A stretch of 64,000 bases of DNA from Clostridia bacterium (lineage in GTDB: Bacteria > Bacillota > Clostridia > Oscillospirales > CAG-272), in assembly GCA_017411805.1 (NCBI GenBank), contig JAFQPI010000005.1, positions 1,538 through 65,537 of the forward strand, written 5' to 3'. The translations under genes were made by a program, and so were the position numbers. Positions 2,314 through 56,064 of the stretch are shown here, piece by piece (the stretch's first letter is position 1; each line of letters begins with the position of its first letter). The notes beneath the pieces were generated by a model. The model was not told the origin of the DNA and did no database searches. It saw nothing but the letters and a program-made list of their open reading frames with translations.

Positions 2314-2373
2314 AGTGTAAAGTGAAAAGTGTAAAGTGAAAAGTGAAGGTAGCTTTTCGCTTTGGCGAAAAGC
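2314..2373 (+). repeat. heptad-array/hairpin element A
   Basis: AGTG at 2314, 2321, 2328, 2335 and 2342 (strict 7-nt phase: AGTGTAA AGTGAAA AGTGTAA AGTGAAA AGTGAAG), then GTA and the hairpin GCTTTTCGC-TTTG-GCGAAAAGC (2352-2373). Confidence 0.8.
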
Positions 2374-3281: not shown

Positions 3282-4043
3282 TCAGTCAAAATTAACAATA
3301 TAATTGCAGCTGACAGAAACAACGCCTTCATATGCGCTCAGCTTTTCCGCGATCTCATCAATGCGCTCCTTATTATCGCTGTCGAAATGGAAGGTGTACA
3401 TCGTCTCTCCCGTATTCAGATCCATCATGTGAAAGATCCCAATACAATCAAGCTCGGAAAAATCGGTCAGATTTGGATTATAGCCCGATTTTACCGTGAC
3501 GATCAGATTGCTTACGCTGTATCCCGCTCGTTTTGAAGCCTCAGACTTAGCCTTGTTCGCCTCGTCGCCGAAGGCACGGACGTCTTGATATATCCCATTC
3601 AGAGTACCGAGGGAGGTCAAGGAATCTGAAATCGAATTTGAGTATTTTACTTCGTTATTGCTGTAAACAAGATAAGCTTCCTTCTTGTCGCCATCATCGG
3701 TAAAAAGAACTCTGATATAGCTGTCGCCGGGACCAGAGCTATCCGATCCGGATGCATACGTGCCGTTCTCAAGCAGCCCCCGAAGCTTTGACTGCAATTC
3801 AGCATTCGGATGGGCAATATAGGAGGAATGTCCCTCGCTGTTGAAGATGTTGATCACACATGAATTATCCTTACTCGAAACGGATACGTCCGTTTCGGGC
3901 GGGATCACTCCGATAAAACCGGGATCTGTAGAATTATTCTCTCCCGTCAGCGCCCCGTCGCCGATGCCCACGCAGGAGGGCAGCTTCAGTATTACGAAAA
4001 CGCACGCAAGGATCACGCAAAGCAATCTGTATTTGCCACTCAT
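3282..4043 (-). CDS. secreted lipoprotein, unknown function
   Basis: 253 aa. Signal peptide with lipobox LPSC followed by VGIGDGAL. Last gene of the sigma/anti-sigma operon. Confidence 0.6.
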   Translation of the reverse strand: MSGKYRLLCVILACVFVILKLPSCVGIGDGALTGENNSTDPGFIGVIPPETDVSVSSKDNSCVINIFNSEGHSSYIAHPNAELQSKLRGLLENGTYASGSDSSGPGDSYIRVLFTDDGDKKEAYLVYSNNEVKYSNSISDSLTSLGTLNGIYQDVRAFGDEANKAKSEASKRAGYSVSNLIVTVKSGYNPNLTDFSELDCIGIFHMMDLNTGETMYTFHFDSDNKERIDEIAEKLSAYEGVVSVSCNYIVNFD

Positions 4044-14194: not shown

Positions 14195-15646
14195 ATGAAG
14201 ATTAAAGAATGGTTCGCCTCGCACAAGCCGACGAAGCGCCGCCTCATCCAGCTCTACGCCGCCCTTCTCTTCAACGCGAATCTCAAGGGTTTTGGCAACG
14301 GACGAATTTATCAGGGTCCCTTAAAGGGCATCTGCGCGCCCGGCATAAACTGTTATTCCTGCCCCGCGGCATCAGCGGCTTGTCCCCTCGGCTCTCTCCA
14401 GAATGCGCTGACCGCGGCAAACAAGTCGATCCCCTACTATATGGTCGGAATCATCCTCCTTTACGCGCTCCTTTTCGGACGCTGGATCTGCGGTTTTCTC
14501 TGCCCCTTCGGGCTCATCCAGGATCTTCTTTATAAGATCAAGACCCCGAAGATCAAGAAAAATCGACTGACAAAGATCCTCTCGAAGCTGAAATACGTCA
14601 TCCTTGCCGTTTTCGTCTTCGCACTGCCGCTGATCTACGCCTTCCGCGAGTTCGTCCTTCCCGCATTCTGCAAGTACATATGCCCCGCGGGAACGCTCGA
14701 GGGCGCGGTCGGACTTCTCTCCAACGAAAACAACGAGAACATGTTCTCGATGCTCGGCCCGCTCTTCACCTGGAAATTCTTCCTCCTTGTCGTATTCGTG
14801 ACAGGCGCGGTCTTCATTTACCGCTTTTTCTGCCGTTTCTTCTGCCCGCTCGGACTGATCTACGGTCTCTTCAACAAGATCTCCTTTGTCGGAGTGTCTG
14901 TTGACAAGGCAAAATGCACCGAATGCGGACGCTGTTACTCCGCCTGCAAGATGGATATCTCGAAGGTCGGCGACGTCGAGTGCATCCAATGCGGCGACTG
15001 TATTTCCGAGTGTCCGACCTCCGCGATCTACCGCCGAGGCCCGCGTTTCCTGATCGATCCGGGTACCCCCAACGGCAAGATCGGCGAGGAGACCGCAAAG
15101 AAAAACAGGATCGGCAAGCGAATCGTCGCCGCGATCCTCGCAGTTATTCTTGTCGGCGCGCTCGTTTACTACAACTTCATCGACAAGGCTCCCGAGGCAG
15201 TTACGGGTGCCGAGGTCGGACAAATGTGCCCCTCCGAGGAGATCCCGCTTTACAATTCGGATCAGACCTTCGGCTTCAGCGTGACCACGACCAACAGCAA
15301 AGTCAGAGTTATCAACTTCTGGGGCACCTGGTGCGGCCCCTGCGTTGCCGAGCTTCCGCACTTTGACGAGCTTGCAAGCGAGTATGAGGGAGAAGCCGTG
15401 TTTATCGCGATCCACTCGAGCTACGCGGGAGATACTGCGCTTGATTTCATCCTTGAAAACTACCCCGACTCGAAGATGCTCTTCGGTCAGGGCGACGAGA
15501 CAGACTCCTATTTCTACGCACTCGGCGGCGGCGACACCTGGCCGATGACGGTCGTTCTTGACGCTGACGGAATCATCACCGCGCGCTTTGACGGCTCTGT
15601 TGATTACGAAACGCTGAAGAGTGCTATCGAAGAAGCACTTAAATAA
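14195..15646 (+). CDS. NapH/MauN-like membrane polyferredoxin fused to a TlpA/ResA-like thioredoxin domain
   Basis: 483 aa. CYSCPAASAACP motif, TM helices, two 4Fe-4S motifs (CTECGRCYSAC and CIQCGDCISECP), a further TM helix, then WGTWCGPCVAELP (WCGPC at 15329-15343). AAGGAGG RBS. Confidence 0.7.
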   Translation: MKIKEWFASHKPTKRRLIQLYAALLFNANLKGFGNGRIYQGPLKGICAPGINCYSCPAASAACPLGSLQNALTAANKSIPYYMVGIILLYALLFGRWICGFLCPFGLIQDLLYKIKTPKIKKNRLTKILSKLKYVILAVFVFALPLIYAFREFVLPAFCKYICPAGTLEGAVGLLSNENNENMFSMLGPLFTWKFFLLVVFVTGAVFIYRFFCRFFCPLGLIYGLFNKISFVGVSVDKAKCTECGRCYSACKMDISKVGDVECIQCGDCISECPTSAIYRRGPRFLIDPGTPNGKIGEETAKKNRIGKRIVAAILAVILVGALVYYNFIDKAPEAVTGAEVGQMCPSEEIPLYNSDQTFGFSVTTTNSKVRVINFWGTWCGPCVAELPHFDELASEYEGEAVFIAIHSSYAGDTALDFILENYPDSKMLFGQGDETDSYFYALGGGDTWPMTVVLDADGIITARFDGSVDYETLKSAIEEALK

Positions 15647-15652
15647 AACAAT

Positions 15653-15747
15653 CCGCCAAAGGCGGAGTTAATGTTGCGCAAAGCGCAAGTTAATATCGCG
15701 CGATGCGCGAGTTAATGTTCGCCCGATGGGCGAAGTTAAAGGTTAAT
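15653..15747 (+). repeat. heptad/hairpin element E: tandem array of four hairpin units sharing an AGTTAAT linker
   Basis: TCCGCC-AAA-GGCGG AGTTAAT | GTTGCGC-AAA-GCGCA AGTTAAT | ATCGCGC-GAT-GCGCG AGTTAAT | GTTCGCCC-GAT-GGGCGA AGTTAAA GGTTAA. AGTT at 15667, 15689, 15711 and 15735 (period 22-24). Stem sequences differ but pairing is kept. Confidence 0.8.
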
Positions 15748-15782
15748 TTCCGAGCCGAAAGGCTCGGAAATTTTCATTTTTA
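15748..15782 (+). terminator. intrinsic terminator (terminal hairpin of element E)
   Basis: TTTCCGAGCC-GAAA-GGCTCGGAAA followed by TTTTCATTTTT. Confidence 0.75.
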
Positions 15783-16116
15783 TTGAAGCGGAAAAGTTTT
15801 CGTCCACCTTTTTCAAAAGGTGGCAGAGCTCGAGACAGAGTCTCGTCTTAATGCAAAAGCTTCAGCTTTTGCTACTGTGCTTCAAAATTCTGAAGCTCCG
15901 CTTCTGAATTTTGGATAGAGTCAATCCTTCCCGAATGTAGGGAAGGATTGCGCTCTATCACCCCCCACCCTGCACCCGTCTCGCTGCGGCTCGGTCACGC
16001 CGCGGGTCTGACGGTCCCCCGGACCGTCATTCAATACCGCGTCGCCGCTTCGCTACCCGTAAACCGGGGAGATTGCGCGCGGGTCACTTTCCGCCGCGTG
16101 CTTGATTATCGGATTC

Positions 16117-16146
16117 TAAAAACCCCGCCCAAACCGGCGGGGTTAA
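16117..16146 (-). terminator. intrinsic terminator of the sigma/anti-sigma pair 2
   Basis: AACCCCGCC ... GGCGGGGTT hairpin (16122-16145). The preceding A-run gives a T-run on the minus strand. Confidence 0.7.
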
Positions 16147-16150
16147 TTGA

Positions 16151-17242
16151 TTATTCCGGCGCAACCTCGTTTGCGGGCGCACTTGTTGTGGCTTCGACAA
16201 GACCGTCTGTGACGGTGCTGTCGGGGTTGATAACCGTGACGAGCTCGGTATTGGCCTTGAATATCTCACAAAGCTCGCTCGTTGCCTCGCCGCCGACATT
16301 GAAGAATATGATCCCATCGCAGATCGGACCGCCGATCGCGATATATCCGTTGTCGAAAACATAAAGGAAATTCATCATCTTGCCCGCCGACGCCATTGAG
16401 AAGGTCACGCGGCGTATCTCGCCGCATCTGTTCATTCTGCCGTCAACGGCATCGTAGGGGTGAACGACCTCCGCCTCTCCGTTGAGGGTAAGCAGGAATT
16501 TTACGATATCCGATCCACCTTCGGTGACGCGGTATTTATCAATTTTCTTGCTGTTAAAGCGCGGATATTCGGTAACGAGCGCGTCCTTTCCGATATCCAT
16601 ATGCAGAGCGGCATTGAAATCCGAGAAGAAGTTTTGCAAGGTTGAAAACTTATATTCGGTGTTCAGCGCGGCGTAGTAATGCTCGGTGGTCTTTGCCGTA
16701 CCCTTTTCGAGATACTTCACCGCGACTGCCGCGTCGGTTGAAACGCCTCGGATCTCGTAAACCTCGGCTCCCACGGTCACAACGTCGCGCTCGGTGTCGT
16801 TATAATGCACATACCACCCCGTTCTGACCTTGATCTCATCGAGCTTTTCGCCAATAAACTCGCCGCTTTTGTCGAGCGGTAATGCGTTTCCGAGATCATA
16901 CTTTGCATATTTTTTGGTTTCGATCTCGGCGAAGGAAGATTCTACAAGAACAGCCATTCCCCCTTCAGTCACTCCGCTGCCCGTGTTCGGATTGAACAGA
17001 TCAAAAACGTTGCTCCAGACAATAGCGTCTCCGACTATATTTTCATCGGTATCATCGGGTTCGTTTCCGTCACCGATCAGCATCGGTAAGCCTATGACGA
17101 GTCCCGTGATCATCAAGGCAAACGCCGCCGCGATCGCCGCGATCTTAAGTATCGGTCTTCTTTTTACGGTCACTACCCTGTCGGCGCGCTCGATCAGATC
17201 CGCGTCGATATTTCCCATTGCATCAAAAAAAACATTTTTCAT
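16151..17242 (-). CDS. membrane-anchored anti-sigma-like protein (partner of sigma 17239..17790)
   Basis: 363 aa from MKNVFFDAMGNIDADLIERA. ATGA overlap with the sigma stop. TM helix ILKIAAIAAAFALMITGLVIGL. The track start at 17392 would run through the sigma gene. Confidence 0.5.
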   Translation of the reverse strand: MKNVFFDAMGNIDADLIERADRVVTVKRRPILKIAAIAAAFALMITGLVIGLPMLIGDGNEPDDTDENIVGDAIVWSNVFDLFNPNTGSGVTEGGMAVLVESSFAEIETKKYAKYDLGNALPLDKSGEFIGEKLDEIKVRTGWYVHYNDTERDVVTVGAEVYEIRGVSTDAAVAVKYLEKGTAKTTEHYYAALNTEYKFSTLQNFFSDFNAALHMDIGKDALVTEYPRFNSKKIDKYRVTEGGSDIVKFLLTLNGEAEVVHPYDAVDGRMNRCGEIRRVTFSMASAGKMMNFLYVFDNGYIAIGGPICDGIIFFNVGGEATSELCEIFKANTELVTVINPDSTVTDGLVEATTSAPANEVAPE

Positions 17243-17790
17243 AGTGTGTAGCCTCCTTTTCTGAGTGCTTCTTTTAGCTTTTTTCTGGTTCTTGAAAGAA
17301 TGACGAGGACGTTTGCCTCCCTCAAGCCAAATCTGCGCGCGATCTCGGCTGTGCTGTCGCAGTAGAAATAGCGGCGCACGAAGATATCGCATTCGCGCTC
17401 GGGGAGCAAACGAAGGAAATCATTCAAAAGCCTTGAGAGTTCGCCCTTTTCGAACTCGTCGGATGTATCTGCAAGAAACTCCTCGGCTTCCTCGAGACAG
17501 AGTGAAACCTCGCAACCGCCTCTCTTTTCGGCGGTCATTTTTCTGTATCTGTCAAGCGAGAGGTTGCGAGTAACCGTCCCAAGATACACTTTCAGCAACT
17601 TCGGCTCCTCGGGTGGGATAGTGTTCCACGCGCGCAGGAGCGTGTCGTTAAAAACTTCATCCGCATCCTCGTCGCTATCGAGGATGTTTTTTGCTATCGC
17701 CCTGCAATATTTTCCGTACGCCGCCTCGCTCTCGCGCAAAGCACGCTCGTCGCGGGCGAAAAACAGCTCGATTATTCTTTCGTCGTCCAT
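17239..17790 (-). CDS. ECF-type sigma-70 family RNA polymerase sigma factor
   Basis: 183 aa. MDDERIIELFFARDERAL... Paralog of 6351..6893, with regions 2 and 4 recognisable. AAAGGAG RBS. Confidence 0.8.
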   Translation of the reverse strand: MDDERIIELFFARDERALRESEAAYGKYCRAIAKNILDSDEDADEVFNDTLLRAWNTIPPEEPKLLKVYLGTVTRNLSLDRYRKMTAEKRGGCEVSLCLEEAEEFLADTSDEFEKGELSRLLNDFLRLLPERECDIFVRRYFYCDSTAEIARRFGLREANVLVILSRTRKKLKEALRKGGYTL

Positions 17791-17868: not shown

Positions 17869-17927
17869 AATTTCCGCTGCGCGGAAATTCTCCTTAACTT
17901 TCCACTTTACACTTTACACTTTACACT
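17869..17927 (-). repeat. heptad-array/hairpin element B
   Basis: Minus strand reads AGTGTAA AGTGTAA AGTGTAA AGTGGAA AGTTAAG GAG, then the hairpin AATTTCCGC-GCA-GCGGAAATT. CACT lies on the plus strand at 17903, 17910, 17917 and 17924. Confidence 0.8.
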
Positions 17928-17960
17928 TAAAAAGACCCATCGTCGACGATGGGTCTTTTT
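17928..17960 (-). terminator. intrinsic terminator after 17963..18403
   Basis: AGACCCATCGTCGACGATGGGTCT palindrome flanked by A- and T-runs. Confidence 0.8.
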
Positions 17961-40298: not shown

Positions 40299-40419
40299 AA
40301 CCTCTATGTATTTTACGCGCAAGCTTTGGGCAGAGAGTGATGGCTTGCGTTTTTGAAAACTTTTTCAATAAAACATTCCTGTTTGATATTTGATGATTTA
40401 TTCGAGATCTTCACATAGT

Positions 40420-40460
40420 TAAAGGGCTGATCCATTGATTTGTTAATGAATCAGCCCCTA
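40420..40460 (-). terminator. probable terminator of sigma/anti-sigma pair 3
   Basis: GGGCTGATCCATT ... AATGAATCAGCCC imperfect hairpin with a short T-run on the minus strand. Confidence 0.5.
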
Positions 40461-43290: not shown

Positions 43291-43326
43291 AGTAATCAAT
43301 AAAACTAACATTTTTTGGAGGAAAAA

Positions 43327-45429
43327 ATGAAACGGTCATTCGGATTTTTACTTACTCTGTGCATGATCCTTCTCTCGCTCACTCTCGTTTTCGCATCCTG
43401 CGATGAGGCCGCAGAGGATACTACACCCGATGAGATCACAACCGCTGAAGAAACCACATCAGAAAATACAACCGAAGCTCCCCATACTCACGCATGGAGC
43501 GATTGGAGCGAGACAACAGCCGCTACCTGCTCGGCGGAAGGTCTCAATGAGCGAACCTGCGCCTGCGGCGAGAAGGAAACTCAGTCCATCCCCGCTCTCG
43601 GACACACCGAGGTCGTTGATGCAGCAGTTGCTCCCACCTGCACCTCGGAAGGCAAAACCGAAGGAAAGCATTGCTCTGTCTGCAACGCGGTTACCCTGCC
43701 CCAGAACGCTATAGCTGCTCTCGGACACACCGAGGTCGTTGACGTGGCAGTTGCTCCCACCTGCACCTCGGAAGGCAAAACCGCAGGAAAGCATTGCTCT
43801 GTCTGCAACGCGGTTACCCTACCCCAGAACGCTATAGCTGCACTCGGACATACCGAGGTCGTTGATGCCGCTGTTCCCGCAACCTGCACCACGCCGGGAC
43901 TTACAGAGGGCAAACATTGTTCTGTCTGCAACGTAGATACCATACCCCAGAACGCTATAGCTGCTCTCGGACACACCGAGGTCGTTGATGCCGCGGTTCC
44001 CGCGACTTGCACCTCCACCGGACTTACAGAGGGCAAACATTGCTCTGTCTGCAACGTAGTACTAAAGGAACAGAAAGAAACTCCCATATCGGACCATAAT
44101 TTTTCCGATTGGAAGGTTGGAGTAGCCGAGACCTGCACCACCGACGGAAGCAGGATCCGGGAATGTGTCTGCGGCGAAAAGCTCGAGCGCGGAGTATTTG
44201 CGGCGCATCATTACGTTTATAACGGCACGACGGGAAAATGCTCGGGCTGCGGCGACGTTATCACTTACACCGACGGTCTGATCTTCACGCTTTCGGGTGA
44301 CCAAAGCTATTATATCTGGACAGATATAACATTCCATAATGACACCACAGTAACCGAAATTATTGTTCCTCCCATGTACAACGGCCTGCCCGTAAAGGAC
44401 ATTAAAGTGGATGCCCGTGGACTTGAAAATTTAAAAAGAATAGTATTGCCTGACGGAATCGAATCAATAACAAAATGTTGGATGCAATTTAGTCCCTTGT
44501 TTTCAACGATCAACTTCCCCGACGGTCTCAAAACAATTGGTAAGGGAGCTTTTTCGATATCAGCCAGCGAAACCGCAAATCTGACTGATATTCGGCTCCC
44601 CAGTACGCTCACTTCTATCAACCGATCCTTCTTGCAGGGTCATTCCTACCCGGATAACAGATATCATAAGTATATTTCGGTCGCATACGGCAATCCGGTT
44701 TATCACTCGCAAGATAACTGTCTGATAGAAACACAAACAAAAACACTGATCATGGGTACCGCTCTTTCGGTGATCCCCACCGACGGAAGCGTAACCGCAA
44801 TCGGCCCGTGTGCTTTTATGGCTATCCCGGAGCTCACAAACGTAGTGATCCCCGATGCAATAACTCATATCGAAAAATGGGCGTTTTATTGCTGCAACAA
44901 TCTTGAAAGCATTCATTTTGGTGCGGGATTTACTCCTGGTGAAAATTTCCCGCTTGTTTTTGGACAGTTTTCAAGACACATTAAGCTGAATCAAATCACC
45001 GTTTCTGAAAACAATCCCGTGGTTTATGCGGTAAATAATTGCCTTATCGAAAAAGCATCCAAAACTTTGCTGTTAGGATGTAACACAAGTATAATTCCGT
45101 CAGACGGAAGCGTTGAAATAATCGGTAATCGGGCATTTGCAACTTGCACCTTCAAAACAATAAATATTCCCATAACAGTTAAACAAATAGACGATGAAGC
45201 GTTTATGTTATCGGCTCTTGCTGCAGGAAATGCGCTTGTCGGTGGTAGCGGATTTACTTATGACGGTATAATTTACTACGAAGGCAGGATTGAAGACTGG
45301 GAAAAGATCAACATTCACAGATACGCTTTTGCTCATGAGGTCGGACAGGAGCATCTCATTCCCGTAATTTGCTCAAACGGAGAAACAGGCGTTGAAAGCA
45401 ATTTCAAATTAGGATATAAACCCTTTTAA
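43327..45429 (+). CDS. surface lipoprotein with tandem Cys-rich 41-aa modules and BspA-type leucine-rich repeats
   Basis: 700 aa from MKRSFGFLLTL (GGAGGA RBS) with lipobox FASC. Four near-identical ALGHTEVVDAAV.PTCT..G.TEGKHCSVCN repeats flanked by two diverged copies. C-terminal LRR_5-like IGxxAF repeats. Confidence 0.7.
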   Translation: MKRSFGFLLTLCMILLSLTLVFASCDEAAEDTTPDEITTAEETTSENTTEAPHTHAWSDWSETTAATCSAEGLNERTCACGEKETQSIPALGHTEVVDAAVAPTCTSEGKTEGKHCSVCNAVTLPQNAIAALGHTEVVDVAVAPTCTSEGKTAGKHCSVCNAVTLPQNAIAALGHTEVVDAAVPATCTTPGLTEGKHCSVCNVDTIPQNAIAALGHTEVVDAAVPATCTSTGLTEGKHCSVCNVVLKEQKETPISDHNFSDWKVGVAETCTTDGSRIRECVCGEKLERGVFAAHHYVYNGTTGKCSGCGDVITYTDGLIFTLSGDQSYYIWTDITFHNDTTVTEIIVPPMYNGLPVKDIKVDARGLENLKRIVLPDGIESITKCWMQFSPLFSTINFPDGLKTIGKGAFSISASETANLTDIRLPSTLTSINRSFLQGHSYPDNRYHKYISVAYGNPVYHSQDNCLIETQTKTLIMGTALSVIPTDGSVTAIGPCAFMAIPELTNVVIPDAITHIEKWAFYCCNNLESIHFGAGFTPGENFPLVFGQFSRHIKLNQITVSENNPVVYAVNNCLIEKASKTLLLGCNTSIIPSDGSVEIIGNRAFATCTFKTINIPITVKQIDDEAFMLSALAAGNALVGGSGFTYDGIIYYEGRIEDWEKINIHRYAFAHEVGQEHLIPVICSNGETGVESNFKLGYKPF
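43594..44065 (+). repeat. in-frame 123-bp tandem repeat (about 3.8 copies)
   Basis: Unit starts (GCTCTCGG/GCACTCGG) at 43594, 43717, 43840 and 43963. Very high nucleotide identity between units. Confidence 0.9.
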
Positions 45430-55805: not shown

Positions 55806-55869
55806 AGTGGCTAGTGGCTAGTGACTAGTGACTAGTGAATGGTAATTTTCCTCACGATGTTCGGAAAAT
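55806..55869 (+). repeat. heptad-array/hairpin element C
   Basis: AGTG at 55806, 55813, 55820, 55827 and 55834 (AGTGGCT x2, AGTGACT x2, AGTGAAT), then GGTA and the hairpin ATTTTCC-TCACGATGTTC-GGAAAAT (55845-55869). Confidence 0.85.
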
Positions 55870-55934
55870 ATTCCTATTGATAATTCAATTCGGTGTTGAT
55901 ATACCAATGTTGAGTAAAATAATTCAATATCACA

Positions 55935-55982
55935 AAAATCTCGGATATTATGAAGTTTATGCTCCATAATATCCGAGTTTTT
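55935..55982. terminator. bidirectional intrinsic terminator between amidase and trxB
   Basis: CTCGGATATTATG ... CATAATATCCGAG (55940-55977) flanked by AAAAA and TTTTTT. Confidence 0.8.
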
Positions 55983-55991
55983 TATAAAAAC

Positions 55992-56064
55992 AATTTTCGA
56001 ACGAAGTGAGAAAATTTCTACCTTCCACTAGCCACTAGTCACTAGCCACTAGCCACTAGTCACT
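55992..56064 (-). repeat. heptad-array/hairpin element D (inverted partner of C)
   Basis: Minus strand reads AGTGACT AGTGGCT AGTGGCT AGTGACT AGTGGCT AGTGGAA GGTAGA, then the hairpin AATTTTC-TCACTTCGTTC-GAAAATT. CACT lies on the plus strand at 56026, 56033, 56040, 56047, 56054 and 56061. Confidence 0.85.

Follow-up and report, generated by a model that had tools for sequence, protein, structure and literature searches.

Diverse perfect hairpins between copies of a heptanucleotide word behind a Clostridia gene: a probable member of a family of strand-specific intergenic repeat elements

Introduction

The repetitive extragenic palindromes (REP) and bacterial interspersed mosaic elements (BIME) of enterobacteria are mosaics of extragenic palindromes with short conserved linkers, which lie at gene 3' ends and between convergent genes and have been proposed to stabilise mRNA, to attenuate transcription or to bind gyrase and integration host factor (IHF). 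Their hairpins belong to one conserved sequence family, alternate in orientation and are mobilised by REP-associated tyrosine transposases (RAYT). Here, we analyse element E, an array of hairpins in a stretch of 64,000 nucleotides (the window) from an uncultured gut or rumen Clostridia bacterium (contig JAFQPI010000005.1), in which mutually different hairpins are separated by a constant word of seven nucleotides. Heptanucleotide repeats are a recognised and unexplained feature of bacterial genomes (PMC4679880, PMC4692102), and the first of these papers, citing Mrazek 2007, gives them as the most abundant class of long simple sequence repeats (SSR) in prokaryotes. Hairpin clusters and promoter-coupled terminators have already been described, too (PMC8355165; bioRxiv 10.64898/2026.08.19.745784), and clusters located within 80 nt of a stop codon were found to coincide, in 13 genomes, with termination sites derived from RNA-seq (PMC8355165).

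We find that E is a real, recurring and so far undescribed kind of intergenic element. Very probably it belongs to a family of intergenic elements that are strand-specific and have heptanucleotide repeats as their basis, and within this family it is a form that carries hairpins. The grammar of this family is well supported: N copies of a C-poor 7-nt word with the core R-Y-K-A, nearly always with UGA or UAA; as an option, one short perfect GC-rich hairpin (5-7 bp, triloop) between successive words; an end at which the last word closes in AAGG and is followed by 2-4 nt, a longer hairpin based on AATTTYC/GRAAATT and AT-rich DNA; and a placement immediately 3' of a co-oriented gene. Our literature search found no account of arrays in which diverse perfect hairpins stand between heptad words and which close with such an AAGG-hairpin end.

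Results

E spans positions 15652-15784 of the window and is located between a stop codon and a canonical terminator (Table 1), in what the initial annotation called a 3' UTR and is here a putative one. As described in the initial annotation, the sequence contains four perfect GC-rich hairpins with the loops AAA, AAA, GAT and GAT, a constant word and a terminator, and the stems vary by paired changes while the linker stays constant. Two details have to be corrected. The array begins five bases after the stop codon and not 7 nt, and the AGTTAAT linker is a constant word of which the A belongs to the stem: as the final pair of every stem includes this A, exactly 7 nt (GTTAAT+N) are left unpaired as the linker, which follows each of the first three hairpins. 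The unit consists of a 15-nt hairpin and a 7-nt linker, i.e. 22 nt. The words at 15667-15742 read GTTAATG, GTTAATA, GTTAATG and GTTAAAGG and are direct repeats of one C-poor 7-nt word, not head to tail but with a hairpin of 15-17 nt between them, and the hairpins are mutually 47-73% identical. In all, there are five hairpins with gaps of 7-10 nt, the first one 5 nt 3' of the stop codon, which makes E a hairpin cluster in the published sense of at least two hairpins, separated by less than 15 nt, in the ~80 nt behind a stop codon (PMC8355165). A terminator consensus scan recovers the terminal hairpin with 12 pairs, a loop of 4 and the tail TTCATTTTTA. Stop triplets occur within E in all three frames, which is not very improbable and is fairly often expected for A/T/G-rich 7-mers.

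The RNA of 15644-15790 folds with -62.1 kcal/mol compared to -37.3 +/- 3.6 for shuffled sequences (z = -6.9), and the opposite strand folds equally well (z = -7.0). Chains of at least four perfect hairpins 3-12 nt apart are found 0.01 times per dinucleotide-shuffled window (100 shuffles, maximum 1), while the real window has two, both in the intergenic region of E. The word by itself is not enriched, with AGTTAAT occurring 6 times in the window against 5.8 expected; three of the six copies fall in E at an exact spacing of 22 nt, and Tandem Repeats Finder (TRF) detects the 22-nt period. The identical E sequence is present on seven other metagenome contigs of the same species. Strain variation at E in DNA runs showed no clean gain or loss of units, and other AGTTAAT-linked arrays surfaced there. 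A BLAST search of the E region against the window and all fetched loci returned no copies of the E hairpins and no flanking repeats.

Using TRF and a regular-expression scan, we located four plain heptad arrays in the window, A to D (Table 1). In each of them the last word is closed by AAGG or AATGG and followed by 2-4 nt, a hairpin based on AATTTYC/GRAAATT and T/A-rich sequence, and all five elements, A to E, lie 3' of a gene on the same strand. We aligned 21 copies of this terminal module, from E, A-D and 16 relatives in other metagenome-assembled genomes (MAGs). The alignment has near-invariant GT.AAGG and TTT/AAA columns, the latter in 19-20 of the 21 copies; six of the seven pairs of the consensus stem show double compensatory changes and none a one-sided one, and the arms of the hairpin are 3-14 nt apart. 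The kinship of E's ending with that of element B, already noticed from the sequence, is one of homology in this alignment and extends to A, C and D.

Is the combination of heptads and hairpins found in other genomes? A scan of GTDB species genomes with the pattern AGTGNNN x3 + AGTK-N0-2-AAGG yielded at least 118 loci (L120-L237) in more than 10 phyla. Outside the Firmicutes, the AGTGNNN arrays are usually followed by a spacer and an inverted array and form long hairpins just past stop codons; in Clostridia and Negativicutes a short terminal hairpin follows. A scan for hairpin chains in the fetched loci, 1.9 Mb in all, identified E-like arrays in four further Clostridia MAGs (L127, L174, L190 and L221; Table 1). 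On its plus strand, L127 carries a plain AGTGCAA array and then ATGATGC/A/T words, some with and some without hairpins between them, and this mixed array (3318-3400) terminates in ATGAAGG-AAA-terminator. Because plain and hairpin-separated ATGATGN words are mixed here, we conclude that heptads can carry inserted hairpins, and for the same reason E, which lacks contiguous words, is filed as a variant of the family and not excluded from it. The metagenome scan with the pattern GTGAAAT-N13-23-GTGAAAT-N13-23-GTKAAGG brings the collection to at least 24 distinct hairpin arrays with ~97 hairpins (from the L127 and L221 genome loci and metagenome contigs), in which GTGAAAT, a word of the AGTGAAA type, links the hairpins and the end is GTKAAGG plus hairpin. 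In two contigs from RNA libraries (X45 and X46), the terminal module of E is preceded by plain AGTGRCT heptads (GCTAGTGGCTAGTGACTAGTGG). The idea of the initial annotation that heptads carry inserted hairpins is thus supported by the mixed array, the arrays of the collection and these two contigs, and the search for interrupted heptads which it proposed does turn up E-type arrays in other Clostridia MAGs and in metagenomes.

AGTGNNN arrays are also present in many viral contigs (L008-L119), and one viral contig of 10 kb (L048) holds 22 of them. A phage origin was considered and rejected: plain AGTG arrays are common in viral contigs, but a true hairpin array was found in 1 of ~235 pattern matches. 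In a MAG of the Lentisphaerales (L189, 1003-2140), 13-nt hairpins of the form GCTGC-NNN-GCAGC with paired changes have the 7-nt word ATGAAGC between them, i.e. an E-type grammar in another phylum.

The polarity of the arrays is related to the gene upstream. Among the matches listed, plain arrays share their strand with the upstream gene 68 times and lie opposite to it 21 times, and for hairpin arrays the counts are 18 and 5 (86 vs 26 when pooled), while the downstream gene is unbiased (46 vs 43 for plain arrays, 10 vs 9 for hairpin arrays). Since three plus-strand and two minus-strand arrays lie under the uniformly negative GC skew of the window, the polarity follows the upstream gene and not replication. 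Several members are located after a canonical terminator (A, B, L122, L136, L196, L253 and L328), others directly at the stop codon (E, its orthologue, L127 and L294). The hairpins themselves are polar as well: among the arrays listed, on which the hairpin statistics below are also based, the 5' arms contain C 224 times and G 135 times (p = 3e-6) and the loops T 142 times and A 25 times (p = 5e-21). The commonest loops are TTC, TGC and TTT, on the other strand GAA, GCA or GNRA, and in the sense direction the arms are polarised as in ordinary terminators.

A placement tied to the upstream gene, for which the orientation of the next gene is irrelevant, would suit a barrier against antisense or convergent transcription, which works when read from the other side and shields the upstream gene from downstream polymerases. 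The antisense RNA of plain arrays (UUUCACU etc.) is G-free with YC about every 7 nt and could be a Rho-loading pad, and the antisense hairpins followed by AUUUCAC or CAUUAAC could be serial weak terminators. Arrays often lie past the gene's own terminator, convergent pairs are frequent (C/D, L127, L153, L174), and ~60% of the hairpins have antisense loops of the GAA, GCA or GNRA type. On the minus strand, hairpin 1 of E is followed by TTGTTTTATT, and the consensus scan lists it as terminator-like for the antisense direction. Nevertheless, we consider such a barrier improbable: the arrays (30-45 nt) are too short for a full Rho utilisation (rut) site, the structure of the hairpin arrays disfavours Rho, a C-rich 5' arm is the polarity of a terminator in the sense and not in the antisense direction, and the loops of E (AAA, GAT) deviate from the antisense-GNA trend. 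Moreover, heptad repeats abound in cyanobacteria, which have no Rho.

The linker is always 7 nt long, while the hairpins measure 11-27 nt and the period 18-34 nt. As the hairpin length varies at a fixed linker, there is no duplex phasing in the family, and the two-turn phasing, for which the initial annotation had thought an iteron-like DNA binding conceivable, is an accident of E and not a family trait. The spacing of LytTR sites, of which TACGTTAAT is an example, is 21-22 bp, WATCACW (= WGTGATW) heptads are bound by the omega protein, and AGTTAAT recurs every 22 bp in E, which could accordingly be read as a set of duplex-DNA iterons for a transcription factor, either LytTR-type 9-bp repeats at 21-22 bp or omega-type ribbon-helix-helix heptads. 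We find this reading very unlikely. The period is not conserved, with 18-34 bp in the family and 24, 20, 20 and 22 in the orthologue; the spacers are always palindromes, for which a spacer has no reason; the words vary between arrays; the arms of the terminal inverted repeat, being 3-14 nt apart, indicate a folded strand rather than a dimer site; and the orientation is tied to the upstream and not the downstream gene.

In the ~97 hairpins, 614 stem pairs (98%) are Watson-Crick, 6 are G·U, 5 are A·C and 2 are other, compared to ~10% G·U in terminator-like hairpins of the same loci as a rough control. Since G·U is about as frequent as A·C, there is no signature of an RNA strand, and we dropped the argument that compensatory changes prove RNA structure: the paired stem changes need not mean RNA and fit DNA-level palindrome maintenance as well as RNA selection. 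The words are near-identical within an array and different between arrays of one genome, e.g. AGTGTAA, AGTGRCT and GTTAATR in this window or AGTGCAA, ATGATGC and GTGAAAT within 600 bp of L127, and almost every family word contains UGA or UAA.

Homologues of the protein upstream of E were found at 91, 88, 87 and 86% identity. In the 91% MAG (GCA_017632155.1), an array begins three bases after the stop codon and reads [TCGCGGCGTTGCCGCGA]ATGATAA[TCTGCTTCGCAGA]ATGATGA[TCGGCTGCGCCGA]ATGATGA[TTTGCCTGCGGCAAA]ATGAAGG-TG-[AATTTCC-TCGCTGCGCTC-GGAAATT]TTCAAT. It resembles E in the number of hairpins (four), in the 7-nt linkers, in the AAGG box and in the family hairpin, but all of its hairpins are different, its linker is another word (ATGATGA vs GTTAAT+N in E) and its periods are 24, 20, 20 and 22. 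The terminal module alone can be aligned between the two sites (MAFFT/RNAalifold), as the units are too diverged. The orthologues at 86-88% have other neighbour genes and either a plain terminator or an adjoining gene, with no array. The comparison of orthologous regions suggested in the initial annotation therefore has a double outcome, a four-hairpin array at the 91% site and its absence at 86-88%. Plain arrays change, too: the orthologue of B in the sister MAG has retained its heptad array, which has drifted to AGCAACT-like words, and the orthologues of C and D have retained AGTGRCT with differing copy numbers.

The arrays of L190 and L221 share 90% identity over 340 nt, a stretch that takes in 70-bp inverted repeats on the flanks. 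Between the two arrays, the same two positions are changed in every one of the five linkers (GCTAAAT/GTGAAAT; GCAAAGG/GTTAAGG). Hairpins 1-3 have been retained, as has the terminal hairpin, and there are two double compensatory changes in hairpin 4. The ~70-bp inverted repeats (GGTGTCCCCTCATCACCCGCTGCGGCGGGAGCTTCTCCCAGGAGAAGCCTGGG) on both sides of these two arrays (L190 4560-4870, L221 290-590) give them a look similar to that of miniature inverted-repeat transposable elements (MITE). As a general explanation a mobile element was rejected, the 70-bp inverted repeats being absent from the other 235 of the first 237 loci and from the window.

Does such turnover require a function at all? Heptanucleotide SSRs might simply grow by slippage in the weakly constrained DNA behind genes, and palindromes might arise inside them, be perfected by intrastrand template switching and remain as tolerated spacers, possibly spread by small mobile units. 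The abundance of heptanucleotide repeats among long prokaryotic SSRs (PMC4679880) speaks for these non-adaptive dynamics, as do the occurrence of AGTGNNN arrays in more than 10 phyla and many viral contigs and the fast turnover, which leaves E and its orthologue with the terminal module alone in common, the 86-88% orthologues without an array and the B heptads of the sister MAG drifted to AGCAACT. Watson-Crick pairing of 98% with G·U equal to A·C is what templated palindrome correction predicts; the non-adaptive reading is further favoured by the homogeneity of the words in each array and by the 70-bp inverted repeats that enclose the arrays of L190 and L221. Yet slippage of whole units would homogenise the hairpins, and all hairpins of an array differ. 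The grammar of 7-nt linker, AAGG end and terminal hairpin with a conserved base is kept across MAGs, the orientation is strongly biased towards the upstream gene only (86 vs 26), the composition of arms and loops is polar, and a four-hairpin array stands at the orthologous site despite total sequence replacement. We therefore regard a purely non-adaptive origin as doubtful.

The constancy of the linker would be expected from a binding platform, in which identical single-stranded 7-nt words (GUGA, AUGA, GUUA and GCUA cores, RYKA) are displayed between the hairpins, or head to tail in plain arrays, as the sites of a cooperative or oligomeric protein with affinity for single-stranded RNA or DNA, the nucleation or end signal consists of the AAGG box plus terminal hairpin and the hairpins merely hold the words unpaired and evenly presented. 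It is consistent with this that the linker is invariant at hairpin lengths of 11-27 nt, that the words are identical within an array, that L190 and L221 show a parallel change of all five words with retention of the hairpins, that the element is strand-specific and that the terminal hairpin is conserved in sequence as well as in structure (TTT/AAA in 19-20 of 21). HutP binds UAG-N4 repeats with a period of 7 beside a terminator, and cold-shock proteins cover ~7 nt. Elements C and D read (UAG-N4)n exactly and fit NAG-N4; in E, GAG or AAG overlaps each stem end, while the ATGATGA and GTGAAAT arrays have no NAG, which counts against a platform of this type. Furthermore, the words differ between arrays of the same genome, so that a single genome-wide protein would need a very loose specificity, which in turn leaves the identity within an array unexplained. 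No candidate protein was identified, and on balance we think that a dedicated binding protein is rather unlikely.

The gene upstream of E (14195-15646, plus strand) encodes a protein of 483 aa. The label 'polyferredoxin' given to it in the initial annotation fits the Fer4_5/4Fe-4S part and leaves out a thioredoxin/redoxin domain that is fused to it. Downstream of E a convergent gene lies on the minus strand (16151-17392); the 370 nt up to it contain no plausible plus-strand open reading frame (ORF), and none of the small ORFs across E is conserved. Rfam gave nothing at gathering scores for the whole window and chance-level matches only (E-value at least 0.35) for 15500-16250 searched up to an E-value of 10. 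Tandem units followed by a terminator, intergenic between convergent genes, could also belong to a known small-RNA repeat locus, i.e. a type III antitoxin (ToxI-like), a CRISPR-like array (short palindromic repeats, clustered and regularly interspaced) or REP/BIME. This is hardly credible for E, the units of which differ and have 7 nt alone constant: there is no co-oriented ORF downstream, no Rfam match, no promoter between stop codon and array and no single conserved family of hairpins as in REP.

The remainder of this intergenic region has features of its own. The second chain of at least four perfect hairpins comes directly after E (15778-15962). Of it, 15823-15962 has an inverted copy with 84% identity elsewhere in the sister MAG (L238 1432-1571), and 15778-15840 (GAAGCGGAAAAGTTTTCGTCCACCTTTTTCAAAAGGTGG), covered to a depth of 6740 in a run of gut DNA in which the neighbouring gene has a depth of 22, occurs with many different flanks, i.e. 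it is a very abundant dispersed repeat. The GC-rich stretch 15978-16068, between the convergent genes, occurs in many RNA-library contigs with varied flanks at a depth of up to 344 and is either a dispersed repeat or a non-coding RNA without a credible Rfam match.

Table 1. Parts of element E, plain heptad arrays of the window and E-like arrays of other Clostridia MAGs (positions refer to the window)
Feature	Position	Strand	Sequence or organisation	Remarks
E, upstream stop codon	15644-15646	+	TAA	stop of ORF 14195-15646
E, spacer	15647-15651	+	AACAA	five bases between TAA stop and hairpin 1
E, hairpin 1	15652-15666	+	TCCGCC-AAA-GGCGGA	6 bp, -8.9 kcal/mol
E, linker 1	15667-15673	+	GTTAATG	7 nt, C-free, includes TAA
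E, hairpin 2	15674-15688	+	TTGCGC-AAA-GCGCAA	-6.4 kcal/mol
E, linker 2	15689-15695	+	GTTAATA	7 nt
E, hairpin 3	15696-15710	+	TCGCGC-GAT-GCGCGA	-8.1 kcal/mol
E, linker 3	15711-15717	+	GTTAATG	7 nt
E, hairpin 4	15718-15734	+	TTCGCCC-GAT-GGGCGAA	7 bp, -9.9 kcal/mol
E, terminal box	15735-15744	+	GTTAAAGG + TT	family-wide signal 'last word ends in AAGG', 2-4 nt 5' of terminal hairpin
E, terminal hairpin	15745-15772	+	AATTTCCGAGCC-GAAA-GGCTCGGAAATT	12 bp, -19.3 kcal/mol, family AATTTYC/GRAAATT base
E, T-rich tract	15773-15784	+	TTCATTTTTATT	with terminal hairpin, match to intrinsic-terminator consensus
Array A	2314-2373	+	AGTGTAA/AGTGAAA x4, AGTGAAGG, TA, hairpin GCTTTTCGC-TTTG-GCGAAAAGC	after rplA terminator
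Array B	17870-17928	-	AGTGTAA x3, AGTGGAA, AGTTAAGG, AGA, hairpin ATTTCCGC-GCA-GCGGAAAT	after terminator of Big_1 gene, upstream of ECF sigma (extracytoplasmic function) gene
Array C	55806-55869	+	AGTGGCT/AGTGACT x4, AGTGAATGG, TA, hairpin ATTTTCC-(11 nt)-GGAAAAT	after amidase_3 gene
Array D	55992-56064	-	AGTGRCT x5, AGTGGAAGG, TAGA, hairpin AATTTTC-(11 nt)-GAAAATT	after Pyr_redox_2 gene, converging on C
Hairpin array of L127			GTGAAAT linkers	ends GTGAAGG or GTTAAGG-AA-hairpin
Hairpin array of L190			GCTAAAT linkers	ends GCAAAGG-TA-hairpin
Hairpin array of L221			GTGAAAT linkers	
Hairpin array of L174			GTTAATG linker, then GTTTAAGG-TA-hairpin	very close to E

Elements C and D enclose a unit of ~120 nt (55870-55991) with a promoter-like TTGATA-17-TATACC, an ORF of 20 codons (MLSKIIQYHKNLGYYEVYAP) and a strong hairpin CTCGGATATTATG...CATAATATCCGAG followed by T6, and this arrangement with the enclosed unit is kept in a related MAG (L153). 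The 11-nt loop of their terminal hairpins defines a subtype that is also found in L174, L190, L202 and L238. Its sequence is conserved, with TCGCGTTGCTC or TCGCTGCGCTC in the MAGs, and the window has TCACGATGTTC or TCACTTCGTTC; in this subtype TTGCTC stands 16-17 nt upstream of GATAAT or TATAAA and could serve as the -35 box of a promoter coupled to the hairpin. Elsewhere in the window, a lone AGTTAAAGG is followed by the hairpin GGCTGATCCATT...AATGAATCAGCC (40418-40460), of which L221 has a near-identical version at ~760-790, and a 123-nt tandem repeat of 3.8 copies with 87% identity at 43594-44060, within ORF 43315-45429, is presumably a repeated protein domain.

Discussion

What could an array such as E do? 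Our preferred reading, to which we assign a probability of about one in three, is a co-transcriptional hairpin-cluster module that forms a 3' end or an insulator on a slippage-prone heptad scaffold. RNA polymerase exiting the upstream gene would read E co-transcriptionally, and each mini-hairpin would fold separately, with the sequence differences avoiding mispairing among neighbours. The mini-hairpins and the terminal hairpin would together be a cluster-of-hairpins 3'-end module, which would slow the polymerase and terminate the transcript at 15773-15784, and the multi-hairpin 3' tail left on the transcript could resist 3' exonucleases. Being perfect palindromes, the stems might also put hairpins before polymerases arriving from the convergent gene, the last one then followed by UUGUUUUAUU. 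The 7-nt words would be a scaffold inherited from plain heptad repeats, and word identity as well as palindrome perfection may be kept by slipped-strand realignment with extruded hairpins and by templated quasi-palindrome correction. We favour this 3'-end or insulator module because of the site, which has a stop codon on one side and a terminator on the other, the stem polarity, which resembles that of terminators, the convergent genes and the hairpin-cluster literature (PMC8355165), and we count for it the maintenance of the L190 and L221 hairpins via double compensatory changes.

Several observations weigh against it. Many members lie downstream of a strong terminator, where few sense transcripts are to be expected; the linkers lack an enrichment in U, and single units are thus not terminators; and the terminal hairpin of the orthologue, with 7 AU-rich bp and an 11-nt loop, is too weak for termination. 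Stems with 1% G·U, as much as A·C, compared to ~10% in terminator-like hairpins, are unusual for selection at the RNA level. As the plain members have the terminal hairpin only, a hairpin function cannot unite the family, and a role in termination gives no account of the concerted change of the five linkers between L190 and L221. On account of such objections, a binding platform and non-adaptive repeat dynamics stay in contention, with an antisense barrier as a third candidate. At the level of transcripts, none of the metatranscriptome contigs examined spans the junction of gene and E; the organism is rare, and the contigs carry no strand or end information. At least eight different family arrays lie inside RNA-library contigs of 200-1000 nt, which weakly suggests that family arrays are transcribed; these contigs may contain DNA.

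As a second and more tentative possibility, we speculate that the arrays are a class of cis-elements in which the sameness of the words within an array matters and not the word itself, the hairpins being removable beads. The five parallel linker changes between L190 and L221 and the full replacement at the orthologous site are hard to explain otherwise. Such a class could act in one of two ways, either through reading by word identity, e.g. by proteins that form a cooperative lattice on RNA or DNA in single-stranded form, or through a slipped DNA or RNA structure with extruded hairpins and linkers paired out of register. If this holds, the arrays would be a strand-specific insulator behind Clostridia genes, and the excess of heptanucleotide repeats in bacteria would become accessible from the side of function.

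Whichever role applies, the commonest long simple repeats of prokaryotes gain a grammar of word, optional hairpin, AAGG box and terminal hairpin, with a placement and a polarity, and an unusual evolutionary signature, in which words shift in concert, hairpins are kept and stems remain perfectly Watson-Crick. If functional, the family would add to the 3'-end or insulator control of gut and rumen Clostridia a widespread layer that has so far not been annotated, in bacteria which existing RNA-family and terminator annotation covers poorly; if non-functional, it would be a clean natural case of DNA-level maintenance of repeats and palindromes.

How does E compare with known systems? A CRISPR array has identical repeats of at least 23 nt and non-palindromic spacers, and was rejected, as the constant part of E is 7 nt and the variable parts are palindromes of 15-17 nt. 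A type III toxin-antitoxin RNA was rejected on the differing units and on the absence of a plausible plus-strand ORF in the 370 nt to the convergent gene. The integron attC core (GTTRRRY) is a poor match and E is far too short; a selenocysteine insertion sequence (SECIS) does not go with a TAA stop codon; the CodY half-sites AATTTTC/GAAAATT occur in some terminal hairpins only and at the wrong spacing; and polar sequences of FtsK/SpoIIIE do not agree with the mixed orientation of the arrays within 64 kb. Like REP/BIME, E is an array of palindromes with a short linker at a gene 3' end and between convergent genes; unlike there, its hairpins all differ, the orientation is direct and the conserved part is the linker. 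REP/BIME were rejected on the 47-73% identity of the E hairpins, the diversity of the ~97 hairpins of the listed arrays and the absence of BLAST copies in the window and loci.

The antitermination sites of HutP and TRAP share with the family short single-stranded RNA words at a fixed spacing beside a terminator, but the word of the family varies (GTTAATR, ATGATGA, GCTAAAT) and stands behind genes and not in leaders. No gene for HutP or TRAP was connected with the arrays, though no search aimed at HutP was made. Among sites in duplex DNA, the omega heptad iterons of inc18 plasmids, contiguous WGTGATW heptads in Firmicutes, resemble the AGTGANN arrays, and the 9-bp direct repeats of LytTR, of GTTAAT type at ~21-22 bp, resemble E. 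Both are duplex sites with fixed spacing in promoters, whereas the E family has variable spacing, palindromic spacers and a strand-specific position behind genes. Ordinary intrinsic terminators have the C-rich 5' arms in common with the family, and E ends in a canonical hairpin plus U-tract; in the hairpin-cluster termination units of Gupta & Pal 2021 (PMC8355165), as in E, hairpins less than 15 nt apart lie no more than 80 nt past the stop. What sets E apart from both is the constant 7-nt spacer word, the perfect Watson-Crick stems, the triloops and the AAGG box, and the family departs from the hairpin-cluster concept by its many members after the terminator and by its tie to plain heptad repeats.

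Closest to the family are the heptanucleotide repeats of bacteria (Mrazek et al. 2007; the cyanobacterial short tandemly repeated repetitive (STRR) sequences; TAACTGA of the Beggiatoaceae). As described in PMC4679880, these have in common with the E family the 7-nt unit, intergenic direct arrays of 2-10 copies, a patchy and very wide spread, frequent stop triplets and slippage as the process thought to generate them. In that account the TAACTGA repeats lie just upstream of start codons in sense orientation, whereas the E family lies 3' of genes with an unbiased next gene. In known heptanucleotide arrays the units follow one another without a gap; in E, successive words are always separated by a perfect hairpin, each time a different one, and the family, unlike those arrays, has a defined end of AAGG plus hairpin.

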